A stretch of DNA of 64,000 bases. Origin: a virus. Lineage: Duplodnaviria > Heunggongvirae > Uroviricota > Caudoviricetes. The notes under the pieces are model-generated. The model had not been told where the DNA came from and did no database searches. It saw nothing but the letters and a program-made list of their open reading frames with translations. How positions within the stretch are numbered: position 1 is the stretch's first letter; every line of letters begins with the position of its first letter. Below, one piece after another: positions 1 to 17,858 of this stretch. Location: the IMG/VR virus record IMGVR_UViG_3300043425_000840. One strand, written 5' to 3'. Both the position numbers and the translations under genes were made by a program.

Positions 1-26
1 TACAAACCGGAACCACATTAAATGCT

Positions 27-431
27 ATGGTATCAGCCGAGGTTGATACAATTTACATTAGAATAACATTATCTGACGGTAGAACTTGGACTGATGCACC
101 TTCAGCAACATATTATATTGAAGAATCAGGTTCAACAGCAACAAGATTTGAGAGAGTTAATAAAATGTACGTTGGTGACAAATTAGTAATCACTGACACT
201 AACACTAATCTATTAACAACTGTAGAGATTACAGGATTGGAAATGGAACACGCACAAAAAACCATTTATAGTTTGGACTTTGAATCTTCAGATTTATTCT
301 TAGTTGATATTGGTGATGGTGATTTTAGTGTGATGCACAATACTTGTTGGTGTCCTTGGAACTATTGTGGACACTGGTGTAATAGCTGGTACTGTCCTGG
401 TTGTTCAAATGTACCCGTACCGAAAATATAA
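27..431 (+). CDS. hypothetical protein (Cys/Trp-rich C-terminus); may be truncated at the window start
   Basis: ORF track; upstream neighbour of the modification operon. No recognisable motif. Confidence 0.4.
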   Translation: MVSAEVDTIYIRITLSDGRTWTDAPSATYYIEESGSTATRFERVNKMYVGDKLVITDTNTNLLTTVEITGLEMEHAQKTIYSLDFESSDLFLVDIGDGDFSVMHNTCWCPWNYCGHWCNSWYCPGCSNVPVPKI

Positions 432-598
432 AATTAAAATATTATGGCACAAAAAGAAAGAATAGAAAGACCTGCACAAACAATTAAAGCAATTGTTGCA
501 CCCATTTCAAGTGAATTAAAAACAAAAGTAGCAACTGCGTTTCAAGCGGTTGTAACAGCTATTAAGGTTAAACACTTGGGGGAATAAGATAATGTTTT

Positions 599-1420
599 AT
601 GAAGTTATTCACATATGGAGATAGTTGGACTGAGGGTGTTGGGGGTAATGTTGATGAGGAATTAACAACAGAAATTCCTGAGGAAAGAACTAACATAAGA
701 CAAAAATATTGTTGGCCAAAACACTTATCAGAACTACTTGAATGTGAAGTTAAAAATAACGGAGTTGGGGCTTTTTCGAACAACTCAATATTCAATACAG
801 TTTGTTATCAATTAAAAAATGAAATCATCACTCAAGATGATTTTGTTGTTATTATGTGGTCCTCATCATTAAGAGACCAACTACCATTTTTTCCAAACGA
901 GAATAGTTTTCATATTTGGGGTCAACGATATAAGAGTAAACAACATCTTTTCAAATATATTTTCGACGGTGTTAGTGGGGATAATGTAAACTATAATAGG
1001 GCGGAAAAGAATTTTAGAGATTACTACATTAGTAATTTGTTTAATGACACGTACTATGACATAGTTAACCAAAACTACATTCTACACTTACAATTTATGT
1101 TTAAGGAGTTGGGGATTAGATATGTTTTTTGCGATGCGTTTGATACTATGATTAACAAAAACATCGATGTTCTGGTTGATAAAACTCATTTGATTGAGGG
1201 TGAAAGATATTGGGGTTATAGAGATAAAACAATGGCTAATTTGTTAATCGACACAAATAGAAAAGATGTTTGGGAGGATAATAATCGATGGGTGGACACA
1301 ACCGCAGGTAAACACCCAAGTAACAACGGATATAAATTAATTGCTGAGGAATTGTATAAATTCATAAATGAAGATAATTTACTAATCCATAATAAAAAGA
1401 AAAATTCATATCTACTATGA
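599..1420 (+). CDS. SGNH/GDSL-like hydrolase, paralogue 1 (Ser nucleophile)
   Basis: N-terminal block I 'FTYGDSWTEG'. 'GVGAFSNNSIF' is Gly/Asn block-like. C-terminal 'GKHPSNNGY' is block V-like. Stop overlaps the next start (ATGA). Confidence 0.55.
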   Translation: MKLFTYGDSWTEGVGGNVDEELTTEIPEERTNIRQKYCWPKHLSELLECEVKNNGVGAFSNNSIFNTVCYQLKNEIITQDDFVVIMWSSSLRDQLPFFPNENSFHIWGQRYKSKQHLFKYIFDGVSGDNVNYNRAEKNFRDYYISNLFNDTYYDIVNQNYILHLQFMFKELGIRYVFCDAFDTMINKNIDVLVDKTHLIEGERYWGYRDKTMANLLIDTNRKDVWEDNNRWVDTTAGKHPSNNGYKLIAEELYKFINEDNLLIHNKKKNSYLL

Positions 1421-1983
1421 ATTATAACATAAACAATAATTTTTGTGATAGAGGAACCGCTAAAGATATAATTGATTTTTGTCTTGAGTTCGGTGAACCC
1501 TTTTCATATAAACCAACCGAAGTATGGGATTGTAGAAGAATGTACGATTCCAATTTTAAGGAAAGAATTATTAATTTATTAACAAGTAACTACAAAAACG
1601 GAGATTTTAAATTATGGTTTGATTATTCGACATTTAATTTAAAAAATTTCAACATTAGTTTAACATCATACTATGATGGTAGGTATCTTAATCTACATAA
1701 AGATAAGTCAAGTGAATTAACTACAGTTATTGTTCTTTCTGACGATTTTGAAGGGGGTCAATTTGCGTTAACCCAAGACGAGAACCCACCATATAACTTC
1801 GAAACTTTGGGTGGGTTGACTTTATGTGATTTAAAATTGGGTGATAGTATTTCATTCAATGGTTCTGAAACATATCACGGAGTTCTGCCGGTAACTAAGG
1901 GAATAAGATATGCGTTGAATGTTTGGATGACCGAAACAGATTTTGATTATCCGAGAGTTAAAAGTAATAAAACATTGTTATGA
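1417..1983 (+). CDS. 2OG-Fe(II) oxygenase, prolyl-4-hydroxylase (P4H)-like
   Basis: H-x-D in 'LHKDKS', distal His in 'TYHGVLPV', 'GIRYALNVWM' resembling the P4H 'G.RY.L..W' C-terminal motif. Confidence 0.6.
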   Translation: MNYNINNNFCDRGTAKDIIDFCLEFGEPFSYKPTEVWDCRRMYDSNFKERIINLLTSNYKNGDFKLWFDYSTFNLKNFNISLTSYYDGRYLNLHKDKSSELTTVIVLSDDFEGGQFALTQDENPPYNFETLGGLTLCDLKLGDSISFNGSETYHGVLPVTKGIRYALNVWMTETDFDYPRVKSNKTLL

Positions 1984-2477
1984 GTGTACTAATAATCTCC
2001 CTACCAAGAACGGGTTCTACTTCATTGTTACACAAGATAGCGAAAGAGAAGAATTTAAAACCTTTATTTGAACCGTTTGATGGTACTGGTAGAGTTGAGT
2101 ATAATGGTGAAAAGAATGTTGTGGTTAAAACAATAATATGTCATCACAACGATAATATACAACTATCAAAAAACTTTGATGAGGTGATATTGTTAACGAG
2201 AAGAAACGTTAAAGAGTGTGCTGAGTCACACGCCTATCAAACATACTTTTCAAAGATTAAAAATTATGACTCAAACAAACCTTACGTTTATGAAGAGACA
2301 CCTACAGATATTTTTGAACTGTGCCATAACGACATTATGAAATGGAATGAGGAGTTAAATGAATTATCAACTAAACTCAACGTGTCAATAACATACTATG
2401 AGGATATTTTTGATTCGAATAGTGAAGACAGATTAAGAAAAGGTGATAGAGATAAAACAATTAAGAAACTAATTTAA
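1980..2477 (+). CDS. sulfotransferase-like protein (PAPS 5'-PSB-like loop), family member 1
   Basis: 'ISLPRTGSTSL' resembles the 5'-PSB motif (PKxGTT/PRTGST) of sulfotransferases. 'LTRRNVKECAES' resembles the 3'-PB R-x7-S motif. At 165 aa it is short for the fold. Confidence 0.45.
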   Translation: MSVLIISLPRTGSTSLLHKIAKEKNLKPLFEPFDGTGRVEYNGEKNVVVKTIICHHNDNIQLSKNFDEVILLTRRNVKECAESHAYQTYFSKIKNYDSNKPYVYEETPTDIFELCHNDIMKWNEELNELSTKLNVSITYYEDIFDSNSEDRLRKGDRDKTIKKLI

Positions 2478-2480
2478 TAT

Positions 2481-3725
2481 ATGAAAATATTTGTTCATCA
2501 TTATTATACCGATATGTTATTTCAAAAGTTCTTTCATAATGTTAAGAACAAAGAGATGGTTGAAGTGGATAACACAAATGGTGCGATTAGGGATATTACA
2601 TTTGAATACAGAGGAAAGAACTTTGAGGTATCCTTCAATCCTGAAATAAATGATGATGAAGGGATTCATATAATCGATTTCTTTGGTGCACTTAGACAAA
2701 GAGGTCAAGATACAAATTTTGATGGTACCGAACATAGAGGTTCGGATTCTTTTGCGATAATTGAAAGAATGGCAGACCTTATTGAAGATAAAAAGAATTG
2801 GGTAGTATCTTTATTTAGAACTGAAAAAATATTCATCAAGAATGATAATGCAAAAGTAAAGACGGACGGAACAATACAAATTGAGGAAATTGAGAATCAA
2901 ATTCTTAGACTATCAAATCATTTTATATTGACCGATAATGTTTTTACTAATAAGATTGTACTAAGTAAACACCCAAATTTATACAACCCGTTCACTAACA
3001 TCATATTTCAATGGAATGAAATGATTAGTATTAGATGGTTTTATGATTATAAGAATATTAGTGATGCAATCATACCAAAATATAAAATGGGTTATTCAGT
3101 AAGAGCCCACAAACCACTTAGAGTTAAAATTGCTGAGGAATTAACACAAATTGAAGACATCTTTGTTTCTCAAACAAATGTAATTGAAAAGGACTCCGTA
3201 CAGCCAAAGTATAGAAAAATTGAAGGAGCTTACTTAAATGACTACGATTCTGAGATTGATTTTCAGAACTTAAGGATATTAACAAACATAACAGTAGGTC
3301 TTGACTATTTCTTGAGGATTTTACCAATGTCTAAAATTCAAATATGTGATGAGTCTTGGGCACATAATTCCGCTGATTATCACAGTCAATACTTAAGTGA
3401 AAAGTCGTTAGGTTTAATTTTAGCGAACGTTCCTTTCGTTTCTACCCATTCATACCCATACGATTGTATTATGGATTTGGTTGGGATTAGAAAACATCCT
3501 TTTTATGATGAGTCCAAACAATACCAAGGAAACGCAAAACTATTTGCTGATTTTATAAGAACGTTCATTAGTGATTTTGATAACAATTATCAACTATGTA
3601 AGGATTGGATTAAAGAATGTCACGATATTTTCATTAATAGATTACATAAAGAAAATTCAATGTTAGATATGATGGTCAATGGCACAATATCTAACGAACC
3701 CATACCAAAACGACCATTATTATAG
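2481..3725 (+). CDS. hypothetical protein (414 aa)
   Basis: Long ORF in an operon with modification enzymes; no recognisable motif. Confidence 0.5.
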   Translation: MKIFVHHYYTDMLFQKFFHNVKNKEMVEVDNTNGAIRDITFEYRGKNFEVSFNPEINDDEGIHIIDFFGALRQRGQDTNFDGTEHRGSDSFAIIERMADLIEDKKNWVVSLFRTEKIFIKNDNAKVKTDGTIQIEEIENQILRLSNHFILTDNVFTNKIVLSKHPNLYNPFTNIIFQWNEMISIRWFYDYKNISDAIIPKYKMGYSVRAHKPLRVKIAEELTQIEDIFVSQTNVIEKDSVQPKYRKIEGAYLNDYDSEIDFQNLRILTNITVGLDYFLRILPMSKIQICDESWAHNSADYHSQYLSEKSLGLILANVPFVSTHSYPYDCIMDLVGIRKHPFYDESKQYQGNAKLFADFIRTFISDFDNNYQLCKDWIKECHDIFINRLHKENSMLDMMVNGTISNEPIPKRPLL

Positions 3726-4423
3726 TGAGAATAGTATTCACATATCTACCAACCAGACTTAAAGAGATTACTGAAGTTTACTTAAAGTACTCAATTAAAA
3801 GTTTGAATATACAAGGTGAAGTTCCTATAATATATTCCGATATTGATTATTTTAAAAATTTAGACTTAATATATGATTGGGTTGAGTTATCCTTACCCGA
3901 TAGATACCGAAAACCAACAATATGGTCATATCCTAAGTTAAAAGTTCTATCCGAAATTCAATTCCCCTTTATACATTTGGATAATGATTTAGTAGTTGAG
4001 GATATTAAAAAATTATTAGATATCATTAAAAAGGATAAACTAAATTTATGTTACAAACATCCTTTATCGAGTTCACAAATTGAACATTTTACCGAACTAC
4101 ATAAACTATATTCAAATACCTCGTTAGATTATACGGAATTGAATAACACCTCAATAATCGCGTCTTGCAACTTTAGAAATGTGAATAAAGCATATTCCGA
4201 AGTTTTAGATGTTATTGAGTCAAATTACGATTTTTTTAACAAACGTTACCACGGGATACCACCAATAACTTTAAACCAACAATATTTAAATTTATACTTT
4301 GATGATATAAATTACCTATATAAACATAACCCATCGTTTGATGAATTATCAATGAACGGGGTTTGTCACATTGCGGATAAAAATAAAGTTAGTTATTTCA
4401 TTAGAAACAAGAATTTAATATGA
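3725..4423 (+). CDS. hypothetical protein (232 aa)
   Basis: ORF with overlapping start/stop in the operon; no motif recognised. Confidence 0.5.
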   Translation: MRIVFTYLPTRLKEITEVYLKYSIKSLNIQGEVPIIYSDIDYFKNLDLIYDWVELSLPDRYRKPTIWSYPKLKVLSEIQFPFIHLDNDLVVEDIKKLLDIIKKDKLNLCYKHPLSSSQIEHFTELHKLYSNTSLDYTELNNTSIIASCNFRNVNKAYSEVLDVIESNYDFFNKRYHGIPPITLNQQYLNLYFDDINYLYKHNPSFDELSMNGVCHIADKNKVSYFIRNKNLI

Positions 4424-5193
4424 AATCAATGAAGTTTTGGACAAGTTCGGGGTTTGAGGTGGGTAACCATTCTTGGAGATTAGATGAACGTAGAAATAAA
4501 ACATTCAACACATCAGGTTCCGATATTTCCGAAACTAATACCTACACATACAATGAAATGGGGTTCAGGGGGGATTCATTATATAAGGATGGGTTTAGAA
4601 TAATGTCAGTTGGTTGTTCCCATACCGAAGGTGTCGGGGTTAGTGATAACCAAACTTGGCCTCATTATTTCTCAAGACAGATACAGAACGGGGTAGATTT
4701 AAATTTGGGGTTTGGTGGACGTAGTAACGATTACATTGCTAGATGTGTAATCACCCTAACTCAAAAGATAAGACCTAATTTGGTTAACTTAATGTATACC
4801 TATCCATCCCGTAAAGAATACTATCGATACAATGGAGAGTTGGAACCATTTCATATGACTCCTTGGGGTTATTTTAAGGAAGATAATGAAGGGAAGGAGG
4901 AGTATAAATCAATTGCGAGAATTACTCACGATGAGAATGATTTAATCAATTGGTATAAAAATCACCTCCTAATTACAAATTATTTGGAGAATAGGAATAT
5001 CCCATATATATGGAACGGTTCTTTCTTAATGGATAACGAATATTCTGACAAATACCGGTTTGACGGTGACTACGGAGATTTTCGTGAATTCTCTATCGAT
5101 GGTAAACACGCAACCCCAAAACACAACGAAGAATACTCCAAAAAACTACTTCAGTTTGTAAAATCCAATTTTCCCGATTATTTACCTAAATAA
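4420..5193 (+). CDS. SGNH-like hydrolase paralogue (Cys in nucleophile position)
   Basis: 'MSVGCSHTEGVG' (G-C-S-H-T in place of GDSxT), 'GFGGRSNDYIA', C-terminal 'IDGKHATP' (D-x-x-H). Confidence 0.5.
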   Translation: MKSMKFWTSSGFEVGNHSWRLDERRNKTFNTSGSDISETNTYTYNEMGFRGDSLYKDGFRIMSVGCSHTEGVGVSDNQTWPHYFSRQIQNGVDLNLGFGGRSNDYIARCVITLTQKIRPNLVNLMYTYPSRKEYYRYNGELEPFHMTPWGYFKEDNEGKEEYKSIARITHDENDLINWYKNHLLITNYLENRNIPYIWNGSFLMDNEYSDKYRFDGDYGDFREFSIDGKHATPKHNEEYSKKLLQFVKSNFPDYLPK

Positions 5194-5247
5194 ACGGAAG
5201 TCATAACCGACAAACAAAGTATTTATCTAAGTATAATAACATATTAG

Positions 5248-8200
5248 ATGAATATATTTGACGCACACATATCGGGTTCCCTGTCGGTATCCTCTTCAGC
5301 GGAAATACAGGGAGACTTAACGGTACTTGGAATAATTAATGCAACCATTAGTGGTAACACCACAAGTGCGGATACCGCATCGTTTGCACCAAAATATACC
5401 CTAACCTCAAGTTTTAATACTTTTACCAGTAGCACTAATTTAATGTTTGCAGGATTAAATCCCGTATTAAGCTCCATTCAAACATCAACCAGCTCGTTAA
5501 ACACATTCACATCAAGTGCAAACGGTAGATTAACTTCAATTGAGGGTGTTACTGGTTCTATATCCTCATTAAACACATATACAGGAAGTAACGATACTAT
5601 AATTGGTACATTACAAACATCAACCTCAAGTTTAAACACATTCACATCAAGTGCTGATGGTAGATTAACCGCGTTGGAAACGTCAACCGGTTCAATAAAC
5701 ACTTATACATCATCTAATACAACTAACATTAATGCCATTCATACCGCAACTGCGAGTTTGAATACATACACCGGAAGTAACGATACTATAATTGGTACAT
5801 TACAAACATCAACAGGGAGTTTGAACACTTATACAAGTTCAAACACAACTAATATTAATGCTATTCACACTGCAACCGCAAGTTTGAATTCATTTTCTTC
5901 AAGTGCGGACGGTAGATTAACATCTATTGAGGGGGTAACGGGTTCAATTGCGGCGTTGAATACTTACACAGGCTCAAACAATACCGCAATCAATTCATTA
6001 AATTCTTATACAAGTAGTAACACTACAAATATTAATGCAATTCATACTGCAACAAGTAGTTTAAATTCATATACAAGTTCTAACACAACAAACATAGATG
6101 CAATTCACACCGCAACGAGTAGTTTGAATAGTTTCACAAGCAGTGCTTCAGGTAGATTAACCGCATTAGAAACTGCATCAAGTAGTTTAAATTCTTATAC
6201 GAGTAGTAACACAACAGCAATTACCGCCTTGAACACATCTACAAGTTCGTTGAACTCATTCACAACATCATTTAACACTGCATTTGGTTTAAGTGGTGCA
6301 AACGTTACCGTTAAAGGTAATTTAACCGTACAAGGTTCCACAACTCAAGTCGATTCAACAACTGTTAATATTGGAGATAACATTATCCAATTAAATGGTA
6401 CGGGAGCAACTAATGCGGGTATTGTTGTAAGAGACGCTACATCACCAACATTCACTTCAGGTTCATTCCTTTGGGACTCAACAAACGATAAATGGGTTGC
6501 GGGTCCATTAGGTTCTGAAGACGAAGTTGTATTAAAGACAGCATCACAAGCATTAACAAACAAAACAATTAGTGGAGGTTCTAACACATTAACAAATATC
6601 GGTAACGCTTCACTTACAAATAGTTCAATCACAATTGCGGGTACGAGTACATCATTAGGTGGTTCAATAACTGCAGCAACAATATTAACATCAACAGGTG
6701 TTTGGTCAGGTTCGGCTCAGTTACCTGCAGGAGTTGTAAGTGGTTCCGCTCAGGTAATTGCTAGTTTACCCGCAGGTACGGTGTCAGGGTCTTCTCAAGT
6801 ACTTGCGGGAACAACAATACATTCAGGTGCATTCTTTAATGGTATAAGTGTTGTTTCAGGTTCTGCACAAATTTCTTTTAACGGAATTACCGATAAACCT
6901 ACGTTAGTTTCAGGTTCTTCCCAAGTATTAAATGGAAGTGGAGTTTGGTCAGGTTCCGCTCAATTACCTTCGGGTGTTGTGTCAGGTAGTTCACAAGTAT
7001 CTTACACAGGACTATCAAATATACCATCCGGTATTGTATCAGGTTCTTCACAGATTACTTTCTTAAGTATTAGTAGTATACCGAGTGGTTTAGTATCAGG
7101 GTCTTCCCAAGTATTAGCAGGTACCGGTATTTGGTCGGGTTCCGCTCAATTACCATCAGGTGTGGTATCGGGTAGTTCACAAGTACTTGCGGGAACAACA
7201 ATACACTCAGGAGCATTCTTTAACGGAATTTCTGTAGTATCGGGTTCAGGTCAAATATCATTTAACGGAATAACTGATAAACCGACTTTAGTTTCGGGTT
7301 CTTCTCAAATAACGTACGGTTCATTAAGTGGAATACCTTCAGGTATCGTATCAGGCTCATCACAAATATCATTTGGCAGTATTAGTGGAGTACCGTCGGG
7401 ACTTATCTCAGGTTCATCACAAGTAACATATGGTTCATTAAGTGGAATACCTTCAGGTATTGTGTCCGGTTCTTCTCAAATATCATTTGGTTCAATATCA
7501 GGAGTTCCGTCAGGTTTGGTATCAGGTTCGGCACAATTAACATCAACTTTTGTACAGAAAGTAGGAGACACAATGACAGGTGACCTTAGATTTAACAATA
7601 GTGGATATGGTAGAATAGCATTTACTGACAATTATCACGGAATGATTCTTAGAGGTAGTCCAAATAATGCAACAGGAGATATCACCGCCGGTGATGTGAC
7701 ATCCTTAGTCCAACATAGTGGAGACTTTAGATTTTATAGAACAAACGGTACTATAAATGAAATTTATTTCCAAGTAAATGCAACAGCTCCTTATTGGAGA
7801 GGGAATACTATATATCACGCGGGTAATATACCTACGTGGAATCAAAATACCACAGGAACTGCGAGTAACATTACATCATACACAATTAACCAAAACTTAG
7901 GTACAGGTAACTCACCATCATTCTCAAGTGTTTCGGCGACATCAATGGCGGCAACTTCTACCGCAGATGCTACTGGGTTATCACTTAGAAGTACCTCAGA
8001 AGTTTTAAGTGGTGAAGGGTGGTGTACCGCATTATATTGTTATAATAACAATGATGGTTTCTTAGTTGTAGGTAGAGATGCTAGTGCAAATGCACGACCT
8101 GTTTTTCACGTGGGTGGTTTTAACAACGCAGGCTATGGGGGATGGAGTGATGGAGATTCGATGATTACTTTAGTTAGAATGGATGGAACTAAATCTACAG

Positions 8201-8637
8201 GGAGTACATATGCTTATAAAGGTTTATCAAGTTCATCGTATTATTCCAACATTGTAAAAACAACATCAAGAACAGAGTTTAAAGATTCACAAGGGGCACA
8301 TTATTTCAATGGTACATTAACAACTGGTGGTAATATGACAGTTGGTGGTACGTTAACAGAAAACTCATCAATCCGATATAAGAAAGATATTGAAACGATT
8401 AGTTATGGTTTGGATAAAGTTTTACAATTAAGGGGTGTTACCTACGTTAAAAAAGAGAATAACGTTAAAGAAATGGGTGTTATTGCTGAAGAAATTGCCG
8501 AAATTTTACCTGATGTGGTACTTTACGATTCAGAAGGTAAAGTAGATTCCGTATCTTATGGTAGAATTACTGCGGTATTAATCGAGGCGATAAAAGATTT
8601 GAAAAAAGAAATAAACGAATTAAAGAATAATGGCTAA
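5248..8637 (+). CDS. tail fiber protein with C-terminal intramolecular chaperone (peptidase S74) domain
   Basis: 1129 aa. Ser/Thr-rich ~21-aa tandem repeats (SLNTYTSSNTTNINAIHTATAS...) and a second '(L/I)PSGVVSGSSQV' repeat block. The C-terminus 'IRYKKDIETISYGLDKVLQLRGVTYVKK...GVIAEEIAEILPDVV...ITAVLIEAIKDLKKEINELK' matches the auto-cleaving chaperone domain of tail fibers and endosialidases. Confidence 0.8.
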   Translation: MNIFDAHISGSLSVSSSAEIQGDLTVLGIINATISGNTTSADTASFAPKYTLTSSFNTFTSSTNLMFAGLNPVLSSIQTSTSSLNTFTSSANGRLTSIEGVTGSISSLNTYTGSNDTIIGTLQTSTSSLNTFTSSADGRLTALETSTGSINTYTSSNTTNINAIHTATASLNTYTGSNDTIIGTLQTSTGSLNTYTSSNTTNINAIHTATASLNSFSSSADGRLTSIEGVTGSIAALNTYTGSNNTAINSLNSYTSSNTTNINAIHTATSSLNSYTSSNTTNIDAIHTATSSLNSFTSSASGRLTALETASSSLNSYTSSNTTAITALNTSTSSLNSFTTSFNTAFGLSGANVTVKGNLTVQGSTTQVDSTTVNIGDNIIQLNGTGATNAGIVVRDATSPTFTSGSFLWDSTNDKWVAGPLGSEDEVVLKTASQALTNKTISGGSNTLTNIGNASLTNSSITIAGTSTSLGGSITAATILTSTGVWSGSAQLPAGVVSGSAQVIASLPAGTVSGSSQVLAGTTIHSGAFFNGISVVSGSAQISFNGITDKPTLVSGSSQVLNGSGVWSGSAQLPSGVVSGSSQVSYTGLSNIPSGIVSGSSQITFLSISSIPSGLVSGSSQVLAGTGIWSGSAQLPSGVVSGSSQVLAGTTIHSGAFFNGISVVSGSGQISFNGITDKPTLVSGSSQITYGSLSGIPSGIVSGSSQISFGSISGVPSGLISGSSQVTYGSLSGIPSGIVSGSSQISFGSISGVPSGLVSGSAQLTSTFVQKVGDTMTGDLRFNNSGYGRIAFTDNYHGMILRGSPNNATGDITAGDVTSLVQHSGDFRFYRTNGTINEIYFQVNATAPYWRGNTIYHAGNIPTWNQNTTGTASNITSYTINQNLGTGNSPSFSSVSATSMAATSTADATGLSLRSTSEVLSGEGWCTALYCYNNNDGFLVVGRDASANARPVFHVGGFNNAGYGGWSDGDSMITLVRMDGTKSTGSTYAYKGLSSSSYYSNIVKTTSRTEFKDSQGAHYFNGTLTTGGNMTVGGTLTENSSIRYKKDIETISYGLDKVLQLRGVTYVKKENNVKEMGVIAEEIAEILPDVVLYDSEGKVDSVSYGRITAVLIEAIKDLKKEINELKNNG

Positions 8638-9058
8638 TTTTTTAGCAAATACGAGACCAGCACCTGGCGTTCAGTTGGGATTTTTTAGAGATAGGTATTA
8701 TGGTGGAAACAATTATTTTCACTATAAAACAAATATCAATATGGCTAACATTATGTGTACCATTGAGGCTGTAGGTTATGCGTATGGTGCGAATCAAGCC
8801 ATCAGAGCCGCTTGGAGTTTTTACGCTTACGCCGCCAGTAACTCAACAATCAGTATTGGAACATCTAATGCTTATGGTGGTCTAAGTGCTCACGGAGTTT
8901 ACACATCATCAGATGGATATGTGGTTATAAGAGCTAACTGTGCATCGTATTATAGTGGGTGGATTCTTAATGCGTATTGTTTAAATCCAACAGGATATAA
9001 TTTTGAAGTTAGTATACTTGCTAGCGTTCAAACAGATAATGCGGGAAATTACTATTAA
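8630..9058 (+). CDS. tail-fiber-adjacent small protein, paralogue A (142 aa)
   Basis: Shares 'IEAVGY.YG...IR.AW.FY.Y', 'AHGVY..SDGY.VI.A' and a C-terminal 'NYY' with the next two ORFs. Confidence 0.55.
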   Translation: MANFLANTRPAPGVQLGFFRDRYYGGNNYFHYKTNINMANIMCTIEAVGYAYGANQAIRAAWSFYAYAASNSTISIGTSNAYGGLSAHGVYTSSDGYVVIRANCASYYSGWILNAYCLNPTGYNFEVSILASVQTDNAGNYY

Positions 9059-9495
9059 TGGCAAATTTACAAGGAACGGGGATATATCCTGAAGGAGGTT
9101 ATTTACAACAACTTGGTATATATAATGTTGCCAACTTATCATCTGGTGGTGGTCAATATTATCATATGAAATTGAATATTACCCATCAATCATACCAAAT
9201 GATAATGATTGAGGCTGTTGGATATAATTATGGAACATCCGCACCAATTAGATGTGCTTGGAATTTTTATACCTACACAAATTTTTTTGGTAACGTTCAA
9301 ACTACCGCATATGATGGGATGACAGCACATAGTCACTACGTTGCTGGTGACAATAAAATTGTTATTGTAGGGTATGCTAGTAGTTTATATTATTGTGGGT
9401 TTACGTTAAATGCGTACAATACCGCAGGAAATGGTTATGGAACCATAACATCCGTAGTATCTGCGGTTCAAACATCAGCAGCAACGTATTATTAA
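9058..9495 (+). CDS. tail-fiber-adjacent small protein, paralogue B (145 aa)
   Basis: 'IEAVGYNYGTSAPIRCAWNFYTY', '...GFTLNAYNT...', ends 'TYY'; tandem with A and C. Confidence 0.55.
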   Translation: MANLQGTGIYPEGGYLQQLGIYNVANLSSGGGQYYHMKLNITHQSYQMIMIEAVGYNYGTSAPIRCAWNFYTYTNFFGNVQTTAYDGMTAHSHYVAGDNKIVIVGYASSLYYCGFTLNAYNTAGNGYGTITSVVSAVQTSAATYY

Positions 9496-9498
9496 ACT

Positions 9499-9984
9499 AT
9501 GGCAATATTAACACCACCATTTAGAATAGGTTCAGTAAGTAGTTGGTACTTTCAACAAAAGCACATCTATAATTATAATACCACCGCAGGTAGTCCATTG
9601 TATATTCATATGAAGACTAGCTTAATTGGTGCAACTACGTATAATATGTGGATGTTTGAAGCGGTTGGATACAACTATGGTACCGCAGCACCTATTAGAT
9701 GTTCTTGGGGTTTTCACATAAGCACCGCAGGTATGCCATATACGAACGGATTTCTTTATAACATAGGTTTAAGAAACATATATCCAGGTATGTCCGCACA
9801 CGGAGTTTATATAGCATCTGATGGATATATCGTATTGAGAGCATATGCAAGTAGTAATTATTATAATGGATTTACATTAAACGCATACGCAACTAGAAGT
9901 GATGTGACACAATCAAACGTAAGTATAATTGCCTCAGTCCAAACAAGTGATGGAGGTAACTATTACGGAGGACCAGTACAATAA
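9499..9984 (+). CDS. tail-fiber-adjacent small protein, paralogue C (161 aa)
   Basis: 'FEAVGYNYGTAAPIRCSWGFHIS', 'AHGVYIASDGYIVLRAYASSNYYNGFTLNAY', '...GGNYY'. Confidence 0.55.
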   Translation: MAILTPPFRIGSVSSWYFQQKHIYNYNTTAGSPLYIHMKTSLIGATTYNMWMFEAVGYNYGTAAPIRCSWGFHISTAGMPYTNGFLYNIGLRNIYPGMSAHGVYIASDGYIVLRAYASSNYYNGFTLNAYATRSDVTQSNVSIIASVQTSDGGNYYGGPVQ

Positions 9985-10370: not shown

Positions 10371-10399
10371 TTGACATTTGTGAAAATTTTTAGTATAAT
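10371..10399 (+). promoter_or_regulatory. sigma70-consensus promoter (TTGACA-17-TATAAT) upstream of 10406
   Basis: 'ttgacatttgtgaaaatttttagtataat' is an exact -35 and -10 with a 17-nt spacer. The ATG follows 6 nt after the -10, so the transcript would be near-leaderless. Confidence 0.4.
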
Positions 10400-10405
10400 T
10401 AATTT

Positions 10406-10873
10406 ATGGAAAAGATATCATTAAAATTAAAAGACGTTCTTCAATTAGAGAGTGAGATTAATGGACTCACAAATCCAGAAACGGGTGAAAAATATTATGA
10501 AGGATTTATAAATCAAAAATTATCAATCATCTTAAAATATGATTTAACTGAAACTACAAAATTTTTAGAAAGTGAAAGAAAAAAAGTAGATAACTTAAGA
10601 GATGAATTAGTAACCAAATATGGTAAGATGGACAATAATGGTAGAATTGTTGTCAATATGCACATTTTCGAAAAAGATGAAAATGGTGTTATCATCTCTA
10701 AAAAATTGAATCCTGACTATGTCGAATTTGAAAAGGAATACACTCAATTATTGGATAAAGAGATTGATGTAGAATATCCCGAAATCACGAAAGAGGATTT
10801 AGTAAATGCGGGAAAAACAAAAGACAATTATATAGTTTTATTCAGACTAATAAAAAATAAGGAGGTTATTTAA
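10406..10873 (+). CDS. hypothetical protein (155 aa)
   Basis: ORF downstream of a consensus promoter; K/E-rich. Confidence 0.5.
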   Translation: MEKISLKLKDVLQLESEINGLTNPETGEKYYEGFINQKLSIILKYDLTETTKFLESERKKVDNLRDELVTKYGKMDNNGRIVVNMHIFEKDENGVIISKKLNPDYVEFEKEYTQLLDKEIDVEYPEITKEDLVNAGKTKDNYIVLFRLIKNKEVI

Positions 10874-10890
10874 CCTCCTTTCTTATTTCT
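10859..10890. terminator. bidirectional stem-loop terminator at a convergent gene junction
   Basis: 'aaggaggtt attt aacctcctt' is a 9-bp perfect inverted repeat with T-rich flanks on both strands, between the + gene ending at 10873 and the - gene ending at 10866. Confidence 0.5.
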
Positions 10891-11978
10891 ATCATCATAT
10901 TACCAATTTGATATTCACCCACCTCATAATAAGGTATTGATAACCTTAATTTATGTAAAGTCATTATGTCCATATCATCGAATGGTGCAGTTTCATAAAT
11001 CATCACGTCTACGTTATCTGTGAACGTAAATTTTGACCTTAAATCATAACGGGTATTCTTCTGTTCATTTTCAATATAATCCTCAGGAATCGTCCCTATT
11101 TCGATTTTATCGAAGAACGGTTCAATCTCCATAAAACGATTTCTATTATTGGTTGTTAATCCCATTGTGAAAGTCTTATACTTAAAGTTTTTATCCTCCC
11201 AATATCTAAGTTCATTGAATGCTGAGAATGGTATACCCCACTTTCTAACAAAGTTTCTATTAGACGATACTTCGATGATTCTTCTATCAACCCTCATATC
11301 ATCACTGAATCTTGAAGTCTGCGAAACAAAATGATAAACAATTGCCGAATCACAAGTTTTTAGTTCGTAACCTTTTAGTTTCGCACGGACTAAGAAATCA
11401 TCATCCTCACAGAAACACGGAACGAAACTAAACCCATCAAAACCACCCACATCATCAAACATCTTTTTAGTTCCACTCATAAAGAATACCGCACCATCAT
11501 ATAAGTTCTTACTGTCCTTCCATTGATTTACATAACTGTTGAAATGGAAGTAATCGAAGTCATCGAAACCGGAACCTAAATTCAATAATACTTTACCTGG
11601 TCTTAAATGACCTTTGAATATTGGTGGTTCTATTGTTGTGTAACATATTAATGTATTTGGATTTTCATCCAACAAGGTTTCTAAGTTCTCAAGAAAGTGT
11701 TCACCTAAAATCATATCGTTATGAATCAACACTAATTTATCTGTATCAACCAACTTGATTCCTGCGTTATATGTGTCTGAGAATGTTATCCTATCATCAT
11801 CGTGTATGAATGATAAGTAGTCATCATTCAACGACTCTAACCACTCCTTTGTTCCGTCACTTGAACCACCACTACTAATTACAAATGGTGCTTCAGGATA
11901 TAACAAACGAACTCTTTCATAACATTTTTTTGTTAGGTCTAATTTATTGTAGACCGCCATTACTAAAGATATACTCAT
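10866..11978 (-). CDS. glycosyltransferase (GT2-like N-terminus)
   Basis: 'MSISLVMAVYNKLDLTKKCYERV' resembles the GT2 'hhhVYN' start. It lies in the minus-strand glycosylation island. Confidence 0.55.
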   Translation of the reverse strand: MSISLVMAVYNKLDLTKKCYERVRLLYPEAPFVISSGGSSDGTKEWLESLNDDYLSFIHDDDRITFSDTYNAGIKLVDTDKLVLIHNDMILGEHFLENLETLLDENPNTLICYTTIEPPIFKGHLRPGKVLLNLGSGFDDFDYFHFNSYVNQWKDSKNLYDGAVFFMSGTKKMFDDVGGFDGFSFVPCFCEDDDFLVRAKLKGYELKTCDSAIVYHFVSQTSRFSDDMRVDRRIIEVSSNRNFVRKWGIPFSAFNELRYWEDKNFKYKTFTMGLTTNNRNRFMEIEPFFDKIEIGTIPEDYIENEQKNTRYDLRSKFTFTDNVDVMIYETAPFDDMDIMTLHKLRLSIPYYEVGEYQIGNMMIEIRKEVK

Positions 11979-12598
11979 TTCATTCTACTTATTTTAGTTG
12001 ACCAAAGAACACCATCTTCTCTAATCACAGGGTTAAATTCGGATTTCAATACCGTTTTTGATATATGTCCACCCATTTTCCAATTCAACATTTGATACGC
12101 TTGTTTAGGGCCTTTGTGAATTAAAAAATTATCACCATACCATACTTTTAATTCTTCGGGAATGGGTCGATACGAATTTTTATGTATAAAAAACAAACAA
12201 GCAAATCCACCAATCAATTGATAAATTGGGGTTAATAAAAATCTACCCTTAGGTTCCGTCCAACATCCATCACCTAATCCAATAATACCTTTATCTTCAG
12301 TTATACTATCGTGAATTTTATCAAGTAAAGACCAATCGGTTGTTATGTCATCATTAAGAAACATTAACTTATCTTCCTTAGCCATTGAGTATCCTTTATT
12401 CCAAGCAGGATTTACATAAGTATTCTTCCCTTCTTTAACATATACCAATTTTGGTATATCTTCTTTTATGTGAATCTCATCATCATTTGTGTTATCAATC
12501 AAAATCAATTCACTAACTAAAGGATGTGAAGTAACTTCTTTAATTAATTCAACAACACCATCTGGCACGAACATTGTCGGCATTATTACACTTATCAT
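11975..12598 (-). CDS. glycosyltransferase-like protein (GT2-like)
   Basis: 'MISVIMPTMF...ELILIDNTNDDE' resembles the GT2 N-terminus and acidic motif. Start overlaps the upstream stop. Confidence 0.5.
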   Translation of the reverse strand: MISVIMPTMFVPDGVVELIKEVTSHPLVSELILIDNTNDDEIHIKEDIPKLVYVKEGKNTYVNPAWNKGYSMAKEDKLMFLNDDITTDWSLLDKIHDSITEDKGIIGLGDGCWTEPKGRFLLTPIYQLIGGFACLFFIHKNSYRPIPEELKVWYGDNFLIHKGPKQAYQMLNWKMGGHISKTVLKSEFNPVIREDGVLWSTKISRMK

Positions 12599-12601
12599 AT
12601 A

Positions 12602-13600
12602 TTATTTTTTATTTTTCCAAAATGAATAAATTCCTTTATCTAACTCATAGAACGGCCAAACAAATCTTTCCCTTATCGGTTGTTGTTTTGCCCAATCCCA
12701 CATCTTTGTTAGTCCTTCCTTCAAATCCGTTTTAAATTCAAAATCTAATAGGTCTATTGATTTTTGCCAAGTAGGTATCGAATGTTTAACTTCGTGTCTT
12801 TGTTCATAATATTGAACAGAACCACCACCGACAACTTCTCTCAATATCTCATTGGCTTCATTAATTGAATATTCTTTAATACCACCAAGATTAATAATTT
12901 GTTTACTTGCTCTATTGTCTTGAGACGCTTTCCATAATGGTTCAAGACTATCATCAATGTAACTAAACGCTCTTGTTTGAGTACCATCACCAAAGATTGT
13001 CATTGGTTCACCAATCATATGTTGATACATCCAAATACCTAAAACGTTTCTGTACTTGTCCCATATGTTTTGTTTAACTCCAAATACATTGTGAGGTCGA
13101 ATGATACACCAATCTAATCCGTGTTGTTCACCGGCAATTTGAATATCCATTTCACAACCATACTTAGCGACACCATACGGGTCAATAGGTTTAGGTACTT
13201 GAACCTCATCAAACATATTACCGTCTTGGTGACCGTACACTGCCAATGTTGATGTAAACACTAAACGTTTAACATCGTGTTTAATACATTGGGTAATAAT
13301 TCTTGATGTTGCAACCAAATTGTTTTGGTAGTTGTAAGTTCTGATGAATGGTGATAACCCTTCTGCAGCATATGCTGCAAAGTGATAAACATAATCAAAC
13401 TTATGAACCTCGAAACAATTTTCAATTGGATGTTCCACCAAATTCATTTGCCAAAACTCAACCTTTGGGTTTACGTTTTCTTTGTAACCACCGCTCAAGT
13501 CATCCATACCAACGATATGTACATCTGGATGATTTTCAGCAATGTAGTCCGCTAACCTTGACCCTAATAATCCTGCTACTCCTGTAATTAATATCTTCAT
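12602..13600 (-). CDS. NAD-dependent sugar-nucleotide epimerase/dehydratase (extended SDR)
   Basis: 'MKILITGVAGLLGSRLADYI' (TGxxGxxG Rossmann motif) and the 'YGVAKYGCE' YxxxK catalytic motif. Confidence 0.8.
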   Translation of the reverse strand: MKILITGVAGLLGSRLADYIAENHPDVHIVGMDDLSGGYKENVNPKVEFWQMNLVEHPIENCFEVHKFDYVYHFAAYAAEGLSPFIRTYNYQNNLVATSRIITQCIKHDVKRLVFTSTLAVYGHQDGNMFDEVQVPKPIDPYGVAKYGCEMDIQIAGEQHGLDWCIIRPHNVFGVKQNIWDKYRNVLGIWMYQHMIGEPMTIFGDGTQTRAFSYIDDSLEPLWKASQDNRASKQIINLGGIKEYSINEANEILREVVGGGSVQYYEQRHEVKHSIPTWQKSIDLLDFEFKTDLKEGLTKMWDWAKQQPIRERFVWPFYELDKGIYSFWKNKK

Positions 13601-13601
13601 T

Positions 13602-14222
13602 TTATAATGTTAAGTAAAAGTTATTTTGTTTTTCTTGTCTTTCGATTTTTTTGTGGTGGATTATACAAAAATCTTCACTATCAGGTAATGAGGTAATTGT
13701 TTCTGCACCCATTATTCTTTCGTGAACATTACCAAACCACTTTAAATTCTTTCTGAATATTCTACCCTGTTTATCAGGAAAGTTTATCCAACCATTTTGG
13801 TTCACACTCCAACCCCACTTCCTTATATGTTCATCAGTTATACCATCAACAATGTTTATTCTTGATAGATAATATAAATCAACTTCAGGGTTAGTCTCAA
13901 GAATAGGTTTAATGTTTAACATAAACATTTCACCAACCAATTCATCGGCGTCTAATTGGAATATGTAATCACCTTTACAATAGTCAGATAATTTGTTCTT
14001 CCAATCCGCAAAATTATTTTCAAAATCCAATCCTCTCCAAGTCTGTACATTTGGTAATTTATTAAACTCTAACAAATATTCAAGTACTTCTGGAGAACCA
14101 TTTTTCTCATCAAAAAGAATTACCACCTCATCATTAGTTCCTTTTTTCTCAATCAAGAAAGGTAACAATCTTTTGATTTCATCTAATTCATTACAAACTG
14201 TAATTGCGTAACTTAATATCAT
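13602..14222 (-). CDS. glycosyltransferase family 2-like protein
   Basis: 'MILSYAITVCNELDEIKRLL' and 'IFQLDADEL' (DxD). Confidence 0.5.
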   Translation of the reverse strand: MILSYAITVCNELDEIKRLLPFLIEKKGTNDEVVILFDEKNGSPEVLEYLLEFNKLPNVQTWRGLDFENNFADWKNKLSDYCKGDYIFQLDADELVGEMFMLNIKPILETNPEVDLYYLSRINIVDGITDEHIRKWGWSVNQNGWINFPDKQGRIFRKNLKWFGNVHERIMGAETITSLPDSEDFCIIHHKKIERQEKQNNFYLTL

Positions 14223-14225
14223 ATT

Positions 14226-14444
14226 TTATGCTCTTTGATTATATCCTCCGTTTATTCTTCTTGTTAGTTGATTCACAATGTCGTTATCGATTTCACGAGA
14301 AATCTGTTCAGAAAGTGCTCTTGATAATTCTGATACAATATCAGTATAATTGACACCTGTCTCTAATATTTCTGGTCTCCAATCTACACGTAACACTCTT
14401 GCCTTTTTAGAAATACCTCTAAAAAATTTAAATTCACTAATCAT
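14226..14444 (-). CDS. small protein with N-terminal FKFF motif (72 aa)
   Basis: Starts 'MISEFKFFRG', basic C-terminus; member of the FKFF-motif set. Confidence 0.5.
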   Translation of the reverse strand: MISEFKFFRGISKKARVLRVDWRPEILETGVNYTDIVSELSRALSEQISREIDNDIVNQLTRRINGGYNQRA

Positions 14445-14700
14445 TTCCTATCTCCCTTGCAAATAATTTAAATGTTGAACCTTCATTACTTGTAAATGTG
14501 ACATTACCATCAGGGCTCGGTGATAAACGAATGGTACATTCATTAGGACCTGTTGCAAATACCGTAGGTTCGTTGTCCCCGAACTGAAAACAAAATTCAA
14601 CATTTTGAGGATAATAAGCCGCTCGACTTAATGTTAAAATTTGTGTCGGTTCTAAATCAGAAAATAAACTATTATTATCCCTTAAAAATTTAAACGACAT
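14437..14700 (-). CDS. small protein with N-terminal FKFL motif (87 aa)
   Basis: Starts 'MSFKFLRDNN'; adjacent to the preceding FKFF protein. Confidence 0.5.
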   Translation of the reverse strand: MSFKFLRDNNSLFSDLEPTQILTLSRAAYYPQNVEFCFQFGDNEPTVFATGPNECTIRLSPSPDGNVTFTSNEGSTFKLFAREIGND

Positions 14701-15947
14701 TACTTAATTTTTGTCAACTTTGGTAAAACCAAATTATGTTCTTTAGGTTGAACGGTGTATGGTTTAATTAAGTCCATAAACACTTCTTTCATTTTTTCCA
14801 TTGAAAACTTTTCTTTATTTTCTTCTCTCAGTATTTCAGATTTTTCTTTGAATTTCTCATAATCATTTTTAACTAATCTTAACACTTCCGCAAATTCATT
14901 ATAATTTGCGGTAAACCATTTAGAACCCTTCAAAATAAAACTATCAGCGGCACTTTCGTGCACATCAGTCAATGAACCACCAATCATAATTGCTTTATCC
15001 ATAGGTAAGAAATCTTTATGTCCCGACCAATTAGATGCAACGATTGGTTTTCCCGTCATTGAAAATTCTAATAGAGGTCTACCGAAACCTTCACCCTTGG
15101 TGATTGATACCATTGATTTAATCTTAGGATGATTATACAATTCATTCATTTCTTGATTAGTCAATTCACCAAATAAAAGGTACACCGACGGCGGATTATC
15201 GTACCCCTTTGTTAATTCTTCAATCTTTCTTCTTACGTTCTCACGTTCTTTTATTGAAAAAGTTGCTGATGATGTTTTAAGTATTAGTGCGGGTTTATCC
15301 TCAACATCTTTGAATGATTCCATAAAACATTTAATCATCATTCCCACATCTTTTCTATCTTGTCCGAGAGAACCTTTTAACCAATGACCAACAAACAAGT
15401 AAGCAAAATCTTCTTTAATGTCCAAATCAATACCTTTGTACTCATTATTGAATGTAGAAATATCGACACCCTCAAATAGAACTTCGATTGGTTTTTGTAT
15501 TTTATGTTGTTTAATTAGTTTCCCTGTGTTGTTTTCATTTTCATTATAGACAGTTGATAACAACACTTCTTTTGAAAACTTTGATGTTGTAATAATTAAA
15601 TCCATCCTATTACAACCATCAACCCATTCTTTAGGTGCAACGGTTGTTTCAATTCCCGCAGTGATTCCAATGTTAAATTTACCTCTTCTGGTAAATTCAT
15701 TAGGTACTGTTACCTGAACGTATATATCTGATGTGATATTCATCGGATTAATTATATTAGATTCAATCCATCTATGAAACTGATTATCTTTTTCCAATGC
15801 GGTCATCGGAGTTGACCCCCACATACAACTATCTATCTTTATCTCAAACAAATCCATTTCGTATAGTGCTTGTAACAAATCTCTTGAATGTGCACCATAC
15901 CCACTTCTTGTTTTTACCGGTCCCCTAAATAATAAAAATGGTTTCAT
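14700..15947 (-). CDS. glycosyltransferase family 4 (GT-B, retaining type)
   Basis: 'GEGFGRPLLEFSMTGKPIVASNWSG' matches the GT4 EX7E motif region. Confidence 0.7.
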   Translation of the reverse strand: MKPFLLFRGPVKTRSGYGAHSRDLLQALYEMDLFEIKIDSCMWGSTPMTALEKDNQFHRWIESNIINPMNITSDIYVQVTVPNEFTRRGKFNIGITAGIETTVAPKEWVDGCNRMDLIITTSKFSKEVLLSTVYNENENNTGKLIKQHKIQKPIEVLFEGVDISTFNNEYKGIDLDIKEDFAYLFVGHWLKGSLGQDRKDVGMMIKCFMESFKDVEDKPALILKTSSATFSIKERENVRRKIEELTKGYDNPPSVYLLFGELTNQEMNELYNHPKIKSMVSITKGEGFGRPLLEFSMTGKPIVASNWSGHKDFLPMDKAIMIGGSLTDVHESAADSFILKGSKWFTANYNEFAEVLRLVKNDYEKFKEKSEILREENKEKFSMEKMKEVFMDLIKPYTVQPKEHNLVLPKLTKIK

Positions 15948-15948
15948 A

Positions 15949-17573: not shown

Positions 17574-17762
17574 TTATTGAGGTTCCTCTGACGAATTAAT
17601 CTCTCTTAACTTGTTAGCAATTTCATTGATAAGAGTACTCTGTTCTTCAGTTACAGGACCTAATTCGGTAGATGTAGTTTCTTCCGAAAAATTTATTTGT
17701 ACTTCAACCGGTAGAGGTGTGTTTTGTGGTTGAACGTTTCTTTTTTTACATCCGCATCCCAT
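17574..17762 (-). CDS. small acidic protein with N-terminal 'MGCGCKKR' (62 aa)
   Basis: ORF; first gene of the minus-strand transcription unit. Confidence 0.4.
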   Translation of the reverse strand: MGCGCKKRNVQPQNTPLPVEVQINFSEETTSTELGPVTEEQSTLINEIANKLREINSSEEPQ

Positions 17763-17858
17763 ATTGTTTTCTTTTTATATAAATATTTTGGTTTATTGTT
17801 TTTTATTCACTATATTTTAATAAAATCTAACAAAGATTTATTTAAAAATCAAGTGAAT

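Follow-up and report, generated by a model that had tools for sequence, protein, structure and literature searches.

The role of the 2-oxoglutarate (2OG) oxygenases, halogenases, carbamoyltransferases and sugar enzymes encoded by large aquatic phages, among them cyanomyoviruses, has been a question for twenty years. The locus described here raises it again. In a stretch of 64,000 nucleotides (henceforth the window) of IMG/VR virus record IMGVR_UViG_3300043425_000840, from a tailed phage of the Caudoviricetes, six small genes (A to F, plus strand, positions 599–5193) lie directly upstream of the gene for a Ser/Thr-rich tail fiber, and a first-pass annotation, made from the letters of the window alone, had taken them for a six-gene operon that might modify this fiber after translation. 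On what do these enzymes act? We find that A–F are a slice of a larger, shuffled enzyme island and no self-contained operon, and that the products of A–E end in a short C-terminal tail that recurs on unrelated enzymes throughout this island. As for the target, the answer that we tentatively prefer, and regard as quite possible, is that the enzymes glycosylate or otherwise tailor a phage attachment protein, the fiber in the first place. The lineage makes the question testable, with an ordered slot between two candidate attachment proteins (the fiber and P496, a 496-aa protein encoded upstream of A), the exchange of cassettes in near-identical genomes and the common tail.

A common tail on the enzymes of a shuffled island

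The six plus-strand open reading frames (ORFs) first proposed for 599–5193 are all exactly present. A (599–1420, 273 aa) encodes an SGNH-type esterase/acyltransferase, B (1417–1983, 188 aa) a 2OG-Fe(II) oxygenase of the prolyl/lysyl-hydroxylase-like (PKHD/P3H/P4H) clade, C (1980–2477, 165 aa) a putative sulfotransferase dependent on 3′-phosphoadenosine 5′-phosphosulfate (PAPS), D (2481–3725, 414 aa) a predicted glycosyltransferase (GT) of GT-B fold, E (3725–4423, 232 aa, GTG start) a predicted GT of GT-A fold, and F (4420–5193, 257 aa) an SGNH paralog of A that is followed by the fiber gene. The ATGA overlaps that had been ascribed to the whole run occur at three of its five junctions (A/B, B/C and E/F); C and D are separated by a gap of 3 nt, and D and E overlap by 1 nt (TAGTG). 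The spacing between F and the fiber gene measures 54 nt, one less than first given. Co-orientation and tight packing are usual in phage genomes and so carry no significance by themselves. A terminator-like hairpin was looked for in the gap between F and the fiber gene and none was found, and a scan for sigma-70-like promoters was uninformative (55 sites, with 54.7 expected from shuffling).

The products of A to E end in SYLL, KTLL, KKLI, RPLL and KNLI, respectively, while F is untagged in this subclade. These endings represent a tail, (K/N/S/T)-x-[LI]-[LI], with which 12 unrelated enzyme families of the island terminate in 88–100% of their unique sequences. Among the families of the window it was found in 92% of 74 sequences for A, 98% of 94 for all 2OG oxygenases taken together, 100% of 46 for C, 92% of 24 for D and 100% of 16 for E; among those encoded elsewhere in the island, in 100% of 22 flavoenzymes (halogenase-like), 88% of 16 radical S-adenosylmethionine (radical-SAM) proteins (f16), 100% of nine and of four members of f23 (SGNH) and f58, and 90% of 29, 97% of 37 and 91% of 32 members of u217, u263 and u95. 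Its frequency was 0% in P496, in s47 (a small ORF between P496 and A), in the fiber and its small linked paralogs, and in the APS (adenosine 5′-phosphosulfate) kinase, epimerase, GT2b, carbamoyltransferase, HSP20 and UvdE. Within the window A–E are five consecutive tailed genes, and 6 of the 104 other predicted genes are tailed too (15949–17304, 17724–18551, 20425–20913 and 21097–21741 among them), the expected frequency being 2.5%.

Across 296 distinct junctions 12 and 8 codons are used at the two positions, each of the three stop codons occurs, and by type 102 of the junctions are ATGA overlaps and 106 are gaps, with 70 overlaps of one base and 7 of other kinds. An ATGA overlap does favour Leu/Ile endings (14 of 39 control genes), too little to account for 88–100%. 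Because codons, stops and junction types all vary, the tail is conserved at the protein level. From these sequence patterns we read it as a protein-level tag of one enzyme guild, possibly a docking, sorting or turnover signal, and it divides the operon of the first-pass annotation into a tagged A–E and an untagged F.

The extent of the island becomes apparent in a sister contig (L083) that is identical to the window over A–F. Here the enzyme run extends ~7 kb further upstream, in the order APS kinase, 120-aa protein, DUF2061 protein, 2OG oxygenase, flavoenzyme of the Trp-halogenase family, weak 2OG-like protein, second 2OG oxygenase, 263-aa protein with a C-like P-loop, 95-aa Cys-rich protein, P496, s47 and A–F. 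The unit is larger than six genes, and the window edge cuts through P496.

When genes were clustered by family over 86 loci of this lineage (L001–L086), the block u95-P496-s47-A-B proved conserved, with A and B right after P496/s47 in nearly all loci, and everything beyond B variable. In one variant C, D and E give way to a longer C and f16, a twitch radical-SAM protein (NCBIfam 1.2e-15, CX3CX2C motif). In another (L002, L005, L014, L088 and L089) E is cleanly swapped for an unrelated 194-aa protein, f25, in which a sulfotransferase-2-like motif (KCGSRF…RDPLSHLVSA) can be seen by eye; the other genes are 94–99% identical, so that E and f25 have been swapped recently, as cassettes, at one fixed position. 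Other islands carry additional SGNH and 2OG copies, an FkbM methyltransferase, or a 906-aa GT1+FkbM fusion followed by a methyltransferase (weak Methyltransf_24 match) and a GT9, and one (L085) has two SET-domain proteins.

Predicted activities of A to F

D and E had been listed as two unknowns of 414 and 232 aa, for which structure prediction was proposed; the models gave GT-B and GT-A folds. D is predicted to be a glycosyltransferase with two Rossmann-like domains in GT-B topology, and E, on the same kind of evidence, a GT-A enzyme (GT8/GT6-like, DUF6734-related) with an invariant DxD. Pfam, PHROG and NCBIfam gave no match for D, and its 119 homolog clusters are all devoid of Pfam domains. 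Its best matches are GT4-type enzymes and not DNA glycosyltransferases, a Y-L-S-E-K motif, noted by eye only, resembles the FucT YxTEK and GT4 motifs, and the matches from a fold search of BFVD were confined to uncharacterised phage proteins and to GTs of giant viruses, with low TM-scores. As modelled, D and E are two new GT families, that of D being restricted to viruses and having no existing family model. The sole relative of D among 185,579 species genomes came from a 2.4-kb contig (L154, VHCC01000116.1) of a freshwater metagenome-assembled genome classified as ‘Candidatus Pelagibacterales’; this contig, of similar low GC, is probably a mis-binned phage fragment and was not used for host inference.

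B matches Pfam 2OG-FeII_Oxy_3 (PF13640; 2.8e-8, 35 bits) above the cut-off of 27, and none of its residues H94, D96, H154 and R164 varies among 21 homologs and paralogs. Against PDB, the family profile finds PKHD hydroxylase (5.9e-10), P3H1 (4.4e-8) and the P4H of PBCV-1 (2e-6), as well as bacterial and algal P4Hs and, more weakly, the mimivirus collagen lysyl hydroxylase. By these sequence criteria B is a 2OG oxygenase of the prolyl/lysyl-hydroxylase-like clade, and the earlier label ‘P4H-type’ is a fair one at clade level, given the invariant HxD…H…R and the nearest solved relatives.

The sulfotransferase-like character of C has some support. A PRTGST loop and R74…E82-S83 are conserved and resemble the PAPS-binding elements of sulfotransferases, and an APS-kinase-like gene lies in the same island as C in L083, L084, L086 and many more loci. 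On the other side, 9 of the 21 family members touch Sulfotransfer_3 with a best E of 0.027, the family profile has 0 matches in PDB, and the best 120 matches listed from a database of 5.8 billion proteins are all unannotated close family members. The APS kinase is itself short (144 aa) and matches the NCBIfam adenylyl-sulfate kinase model (9e-19) under its curated cut-off. C is therefore probably sulfotransferase-like, weakly so on sequence and with contextual support from the linked APS kinase. Paralogs of C and A are found further along the window, assigned by family clustering: a C-like 162-aa protein ending in KTVI (20425–20913, plus strand) and an outlying A-like SGNH protein of 214 aa ending in DKLI (21097–21741, plus strand), the latter also with a weak GDSL_2 match.

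When 19 sequences from both families, A and F, are aligned, S9, G55, N61 and H239 (blocks I, II, III and V) prove invariant, a tetrad that upholds the assignment of A as an SGNH hydrolase. F had been described as a Cys variant; its block I is Gly-Cys-Ser where A has Gly-Asp-Ser, that is, the Ser nucleophile is kept and only the Asp has become Cys. Block V reads D-G-K-H in F and A-G-K-H in A, which has no Asp at –3. SGNH enzymes without the full triad exist. Profile matches are slight, with 26.9 bits for A against DUF6071 (cut-off 27), Lipase_GDSL_2 far under its cut-off (E of 0.027 for A and 0.12 for F) and no match in NCBIfam. The A family is present in 74 related loci, and some sources label it ‘lysophospholipase L1-like esterase’. 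F lies immediately 5′ of the fiber gene in the window and in L001, L010, L012 and L086, and likewise in L134, L136 and L147, where its identity has dropped to 42%; in other divergent loci the F-like gene stands apart from the fiber gene, or no fiber gene is nearby.

Transmembrane or signal-like hydrophobic segments are absent from all six proteins, which therefore should act in the cytoplasm of the infected cell.

Candidate acceptors: fiber, P496 or host glycan

The fiber gene (5248–8637, plus strand) encodes 1129 aa, with many PHROG tail-fiber matches and a C-terminal Peptidase_S74 intramolecular chaperone (1.2e-12). Ser makes up 18% and Thr 13.5% of the protein, Ser and Thr together 45% of residues 101–340. 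The Ser/Thr-rich and the Pro-containing Gly/Ser repeats reported at first are indeed there, as a 21-aa S/T/N-rich unit that occurs 12 times and, 17 times over, a unit of the form ..[LIV]P[SA]G.VSGS[SA]Q... Downstream lies a convergent, mostly untagged sugar cluster (10866–17304, minus strand), recognised by Pfam and PHROG matches, with three GT2 enzymes (370, 207 and 206 aa), an NAD-dependent epimerase/dehydratase (332 aa) and two GT4 enzymes (415 and 451 aa). It is conserved along with the fiber in close relatives. In all, the fiber gene has GTs on both sides, D and E together with six others.

The mechanism that we propose would run as follows. In the host cytoplasm, and before assembly, the guild would act on a phage-made attachment protein, be it the fiber, P496 or both. 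D (GT-B) and E (GT-A) would attach and extend O-linked sugars, for which the fiber repeat region with 45% Ser/Thr would be the likeliest acceptor, and the convergent GT/epimerase cluster (10.9–17.3 kb) would serve sugar supply and extension. With PAPS from the phage APS kinase, C would sulfate either glycan or protein; the addition or trimming of O-acyl groups would fall to A, the SGNH enzyme, and the oxidation of a residue or a sugar to the hydroxylase-like B. F would be a separate SGNH esterase, often encoded just 5′ of the fiber and possibly virion-associated. We infer the cooperation of the enzymes, a virion protein as their acceptor and the identity of this acceptor. For the sugar enzymes we would rank the fiber first, while for the flavoenzyme and radical-SAM members the tail of P496 appears at least as likely a substrate.

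The idea of fiber modification put forward by the first-pass annotation is thereby retained in part. Speaking for it are the GTs, the hydroxylase-like B, the APS kinase, the soluble nature of the proteins and the recurrent linkage of cassette and fiber. Fiber genes occupy two kinds of locus, either directly 3′ of an enzyme cassette started by P496 or in an enzyme-free tandem fiber array, where the fiber paralogs encoded elsewhere are found, and both kinds may occur in one genome. The arrangement P496-cassette-fiber was seen in 21 of 31 informative non-redundant loci, a set enriched by a fiber-based search, with the fiber 2–10 kb past P496, 1–10 enzymes between them and P496 identities down to 23%. 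GT-rich cassettes reach the fiber in three configurations, namely those of the window, of L025 and of L084. Among the annotated island genes no Wzx/Wzy-type flippase, polymerase, priming transferase or lipid-carrier gene was seen, and the SET-domain, twitch radical-SAM and LodB/QhpG/GoxB-like members of the guild suggest, by sequence similarity, a chemistry directed at proteins.

Several observations weigh against the proposed mechanism and the fiber as its acceptor. The constant neighbour of the cassette is P496. Where a locus was reached through A or D only, a fiber is present within 9–11 kb in about half of the cases, and a number of fiberless islands (L040, L045, L051, L053, L057, L058, L061, L063, L068 and L085) run instead into HSP20, UvdE and other core genes. 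Genes A–F that are 95–99% identical stand beside fibers of 46–88% identity, in part as low as 46–60%; conversely, E was replaced by f25 beside a fiber that is still 88% identical, and when co-variation of fiber sequence and enzyme content was sought by eye none was seen. Large phages are known to have a hot-spot of accessory genes next to those for their tail fibers, and for this reason adjacency to the fiber is weak evidence by itself. The fiber has no canonical P4H motif, as it contains neither a Pro-Gly dipeptide (hence no X-Pro-Gly) nor Pro-Pro, its prolines including 10 in the context P[SA]G. Nor is there any run of five or more G-X-Y triplets in the six frames of the window, the longest in the fiber being 2, and the comparison first drawn with collagen-like fibrils was given up for lack of both features. 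The match of C to Pfam Sulfotransfer_1/3 is colinear but weak (E ~0.07) and falls under every curated threshold. Finally, the rest of the window (20–64 kb) is devoted to nucleotide metabolism and replication (thymidylate synthase, DNA methyltransferases, RNA ligase, nucleases), with no late structural module.

Could P496 be the true target? The window holds the C-terminal 142 codons of its gene (3–431, plus strand, open to the edge; listed as ORF 27–431), and the complete gene, at 5217–6707 of L083, encodes 496 aa. The last ~28–29 residues (nt ~342–428), after a conserved MHN, form a six-Cys, Trp/Tyr-rich tail, TCWCPWNYCGHWCNSWYCPGCSNVPVPKI, which among 43 unique homologs is hypervariable on six fixed Cys. 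P496 is built of a conserved body of ~465 aa and an exchangeable C-terminal module: the family aligns with residues 1–463 of a 755-aa ortholog in L085 (hhalign probability 99.3%), where two Hint modules (residues 464–754) take the place of the tail, and the L084 ortholog has a Peptidase_S74-like module there. Hint and S74 modules process themselves, and the latter are typically found in fibers and spikes. Since orthologs swap in such modules, a location of P496 at the virion surface is plausible from its domain architecture. Pfam and PDB sequence searches with the body returned nothing. A classification of P496 as a ‘Hint protein’, suggested by the ending MHN followed by Cys and by the Pfam Hint match in L085, was rejected, as Hint lies past the shared body and the 496-aa family has no Pfam or PDB match.

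Between P496 and A lies s47 (444–587, plus strand), a conserved ORF of 44–47 aa, MAQKERIERPAQTIKAIVAPISSELKTKVATAFQAVVTAIKVKHLGE, with 28 unique homologs at the same position after P496 in most loci and counterparts of 45–49 aa at this position in the most distant islands (L084 and L085). It was considered as a precursor of the kind found for ribosomally synthesised and post-translationally modified peptides (RiPPs) and discarded, being conserved and not hypervariable.

That the tagged A–E, and their relatives, mature the tail or body of P496 in a RiPP-like manner (by hydroxylation, Trp halogenation or oxidation, crosslinks, glycosylation and sulfation), the fiber adjoining only in some lineages, is in our estimation rather unlikely. 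Several features nevertheless speak for it. The block u95-P496-s47-A-B is the most conserved of the island, the P496 tail is hypervariable over a fixed Cys scaffold, and orthologs exchange this tail for Hint or S74 self-processing modules. The best curated matches of the flavoenzyme (L083 1580–2824) are LodB, QhpG, GoxB and CmlS. LodB, QhpG and GoxB modify Trp in proteins, and f16 is a twitch radical-SAM protein. Occurrence of the flavoenzyme is also correlated with how much Trp the P496 tail contains, with a mean of 3.3 Trp in 20 tails from loci with the gene and 0.6 in 5 from loci without (Mann-Whitney p 4e-4), a correlation confounded by phylogeny and amounting to ~2–3 independent contrasts. 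Against this reading, the curated matches of the flavoenzyme are far under cut-off (33 bits vs 400), P496 has no recognisable fold or family, its window-encoded part, with 20% Ser+Thr, would make a poorer O-glycan acceptor than the fiber, and D and E are missing from many islands that bear P496. A division of labour, in which the guild docks through the common tag, matures the P496 tip in a RiPP-like way (Trp halogenation or oxidation, radical-SAM crosslinks, hydroxylation) and glycosylates, sulfates and acylates the fiber, would accommodate both acceptors; we consider it less likely still.

A different target would be the host envelope. The enzymes might remodel a lipopolysaccharide (LPS), capsule or glycolipid from the cytoplasmic side, for instance to block superinfection or to keep progeny from being trapped on debris, while F, possibly on the virion, de-O-acetylates the receptor. 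T4-like cyanophages carry the same enzyme types, for which LPS modification has been hypothesised (PMC1079782, PMC3037559), although this idea is itself a hypothesis only. GT2, GT4, GT9 and NAD-dependent epimerases are typical of polysaccharide loci, and F lies directly 5′ of the fiber gene in several divergent genomes. We are nevertheless doubtful of this explanation, as we saw neither a priming transferase, flippase or polymerase nor any other membrane component and A–F are soluble, proteins or peptides are the substrates suggested by the SET, Trp-maturase-like and radical-SAM members, and the D family, being virus-restricted, was not taken from host glycan loci. The related proposal of the first-pass annotation, that host capsular or O-antigen polysaccharide is remodelled during adsorption, suits A–E poorly, these being small, soluble stand-alone enzymes; F, directly 5′ of the fiber in the close relatives and in several genomes where its identity is only 42–48%, may have such a role.

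It is also conceivable, if improbable, that the enzymes do not share a target and that the slot bounded by P496 and the fiber is a recombination hot-spot, gathering unrelated accessory genes (metabolic tuning, 2OG turnover, repair). The content of the cassettes is extremely variable, from six enzymes down to one, and DNA repair and 2OG modulation have been proposed earlier for phage 2OG oxygenases (PMC3037559). The gathered genes are nonetheless non-random, nearly all of them being group-transfer or oxidative tailoring enzymes, 12 unrelated families have the same C-terminal tail while flanking genes do not, and an APS kinase makes little sense without a user of PAPS. Hypermodification of DNA by the GTs and the oxygenase, either through glycosylation of bases as in T4 or through a TET-type oxidation with subsequent glycosylation, is very improbable: the thymidylate-synthase homolog of the window resembles an ordinary ThyA (PDB 5e-76) and keeps the dUMP-specifying Asn, B is far nearer to prolyl hydroxylases than to TET/JBP, D, as described above, resembles GT4-type enzymes and not DNA GTs, and we know of no DNA modification in which sulfotransferase, SGNH, SET or radical-SAM proteins are partners.

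Known systems, lineage and neighbouring genes

A functional parallel to the tailoring of an attachment protein is found in mycobacteriophages, which have glycans on their capsid and tail-tube proteins (Freeman et al. 2023, as related in PMC12619734). According to that account, phage-encoded GTs act there in the infected cytoplasm, as we propose here, and the glycans land on virion proteins; the acceptors are the C-termini of capsid and tail-tube proteins and one or two GTs are involved, whereas in the present case a fiber or adhesin would be the putative acceptor. The present island is also far larger, with hydroxylase, sulfotransferase-like, SGNH, halogenase-like and radical-SAM members, and it is hypervariable.

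Serine-rich adhesins of Gram-positive bacteria receive their glycans inside the cell from a GT-B enzyme together with other GTs, and an enzyme of esterase fold O-acetylates them (PMC5578698). Their islands (GtfAB, further Gtfs and Asp2; PMC5578698, PMC7948813) are bacterial, depend for export on the accessory Sec (aSec) pathway and are without sulfation or hydroxylation. The likeness to the phage island lies in the enzyme set only, sequence identity being 5–15%, and aSec is absent and unneeded here.

Matching enzyme types are found in the T4-like cyanomyoviruses, with multiple 2OG oxygenases (up to five per genome), a prnA-type halogenase, a carbamoyltransferase and sugar epimerases and transferases (PMC1079782, PMC3037559). 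As in the present lineage, the enzyme types of these ‘LPS’ sets are multicopy and lie in variable regions of large aquatic myoviruses (PMC1079782, PMC3037559). The lineage described here is a different one, and its genes are set in one ordered slot anchored by P496, share the tail and include APS kinase and sulfotransferase-like genes.

Chlorovirus and mimivirus enzymes are among the fold and profile matches of the island proteins. We take chlorovirus A64R and B736L to act in capsid glycosylation and mimivirus L230 to be a collagen lysyl hydroxylase-GT. In these giant viruses the hosts are eukaryotic and the substrates of hydroxylation are collagen-like or Pro-rich repeats, such as are absent here, so that the likeness is at fold level only.

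We know of no precedent for a sulfated phage virion glycan or for a shared sorting tag on phage enzymes. As far as we know, the sulfation arm, the two GT families, the shared tail and a hypervariable Cys/Trp tip with matching enzymes are all new in phages. If the acceptor is a virion protein, phage virion glycosylation would extend from simple capsid glycans to a sulfated or acylated, strain-variable decoration of receptor-binding proteins, with consequences for sequence-based prediction of host range and for phage engineering. If the enzymes do form such a toolkit, host recognition could be diversified, or recognition by host or grazer evaded, by the exchange of enzymes in addition to mutation of the fiber.

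The window is matched by a 324-kb NCBI contig, and as related contigs reach 316–337 kb the lineage is one of jumbo phages. Comparisons with GenBank phages (megablast of 1–9000, blastn of 599–5193 and tblastn of D and A) gave zero matches; the lineage is uncultivated and represented in metagenomes only. A tie to the ‘moraphage’ jumbo phages (PMC12619734) could not be made.

Directly behind the fiber gene are three small tandem paralogs (8630–9984, plus strand; 142, 145 and 161 aa; 39–49% mutual identity). They end in NYY, TYY and NYYGGPVQ, have no match in Pfam, and are conserved after fiber homologs, always behind this fiber type; they may be fiber tip or assembly proteins. Further on, a bidirectional terminator-like hairpin with a 9-bp stem (10859–10880) separates a gene for a 155-aa protein (start at 10406) from the convergent GT cluster, and just 5′ of the same gene lies a perfect (12/12) sigma-70-type promoter, TTGACA-17-TATAAT, at 10371–10399.

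Three other genes deserve mention. The thymidylate-synthase homolog (22093–23229) is unusually long, with 378 aa and internal insertions relative to bacterial enzymes of 264 aa. Two products encoded among the genes for replication and nucleotide metabolism may be involved in cell-wall degradation: an NlpC/P60 peptidase (2.3e-25) at 23358–23858, and, at 32634–34229, a protein of 531 aa whose PHROG matches are to endolysin and metallopeptidase families.

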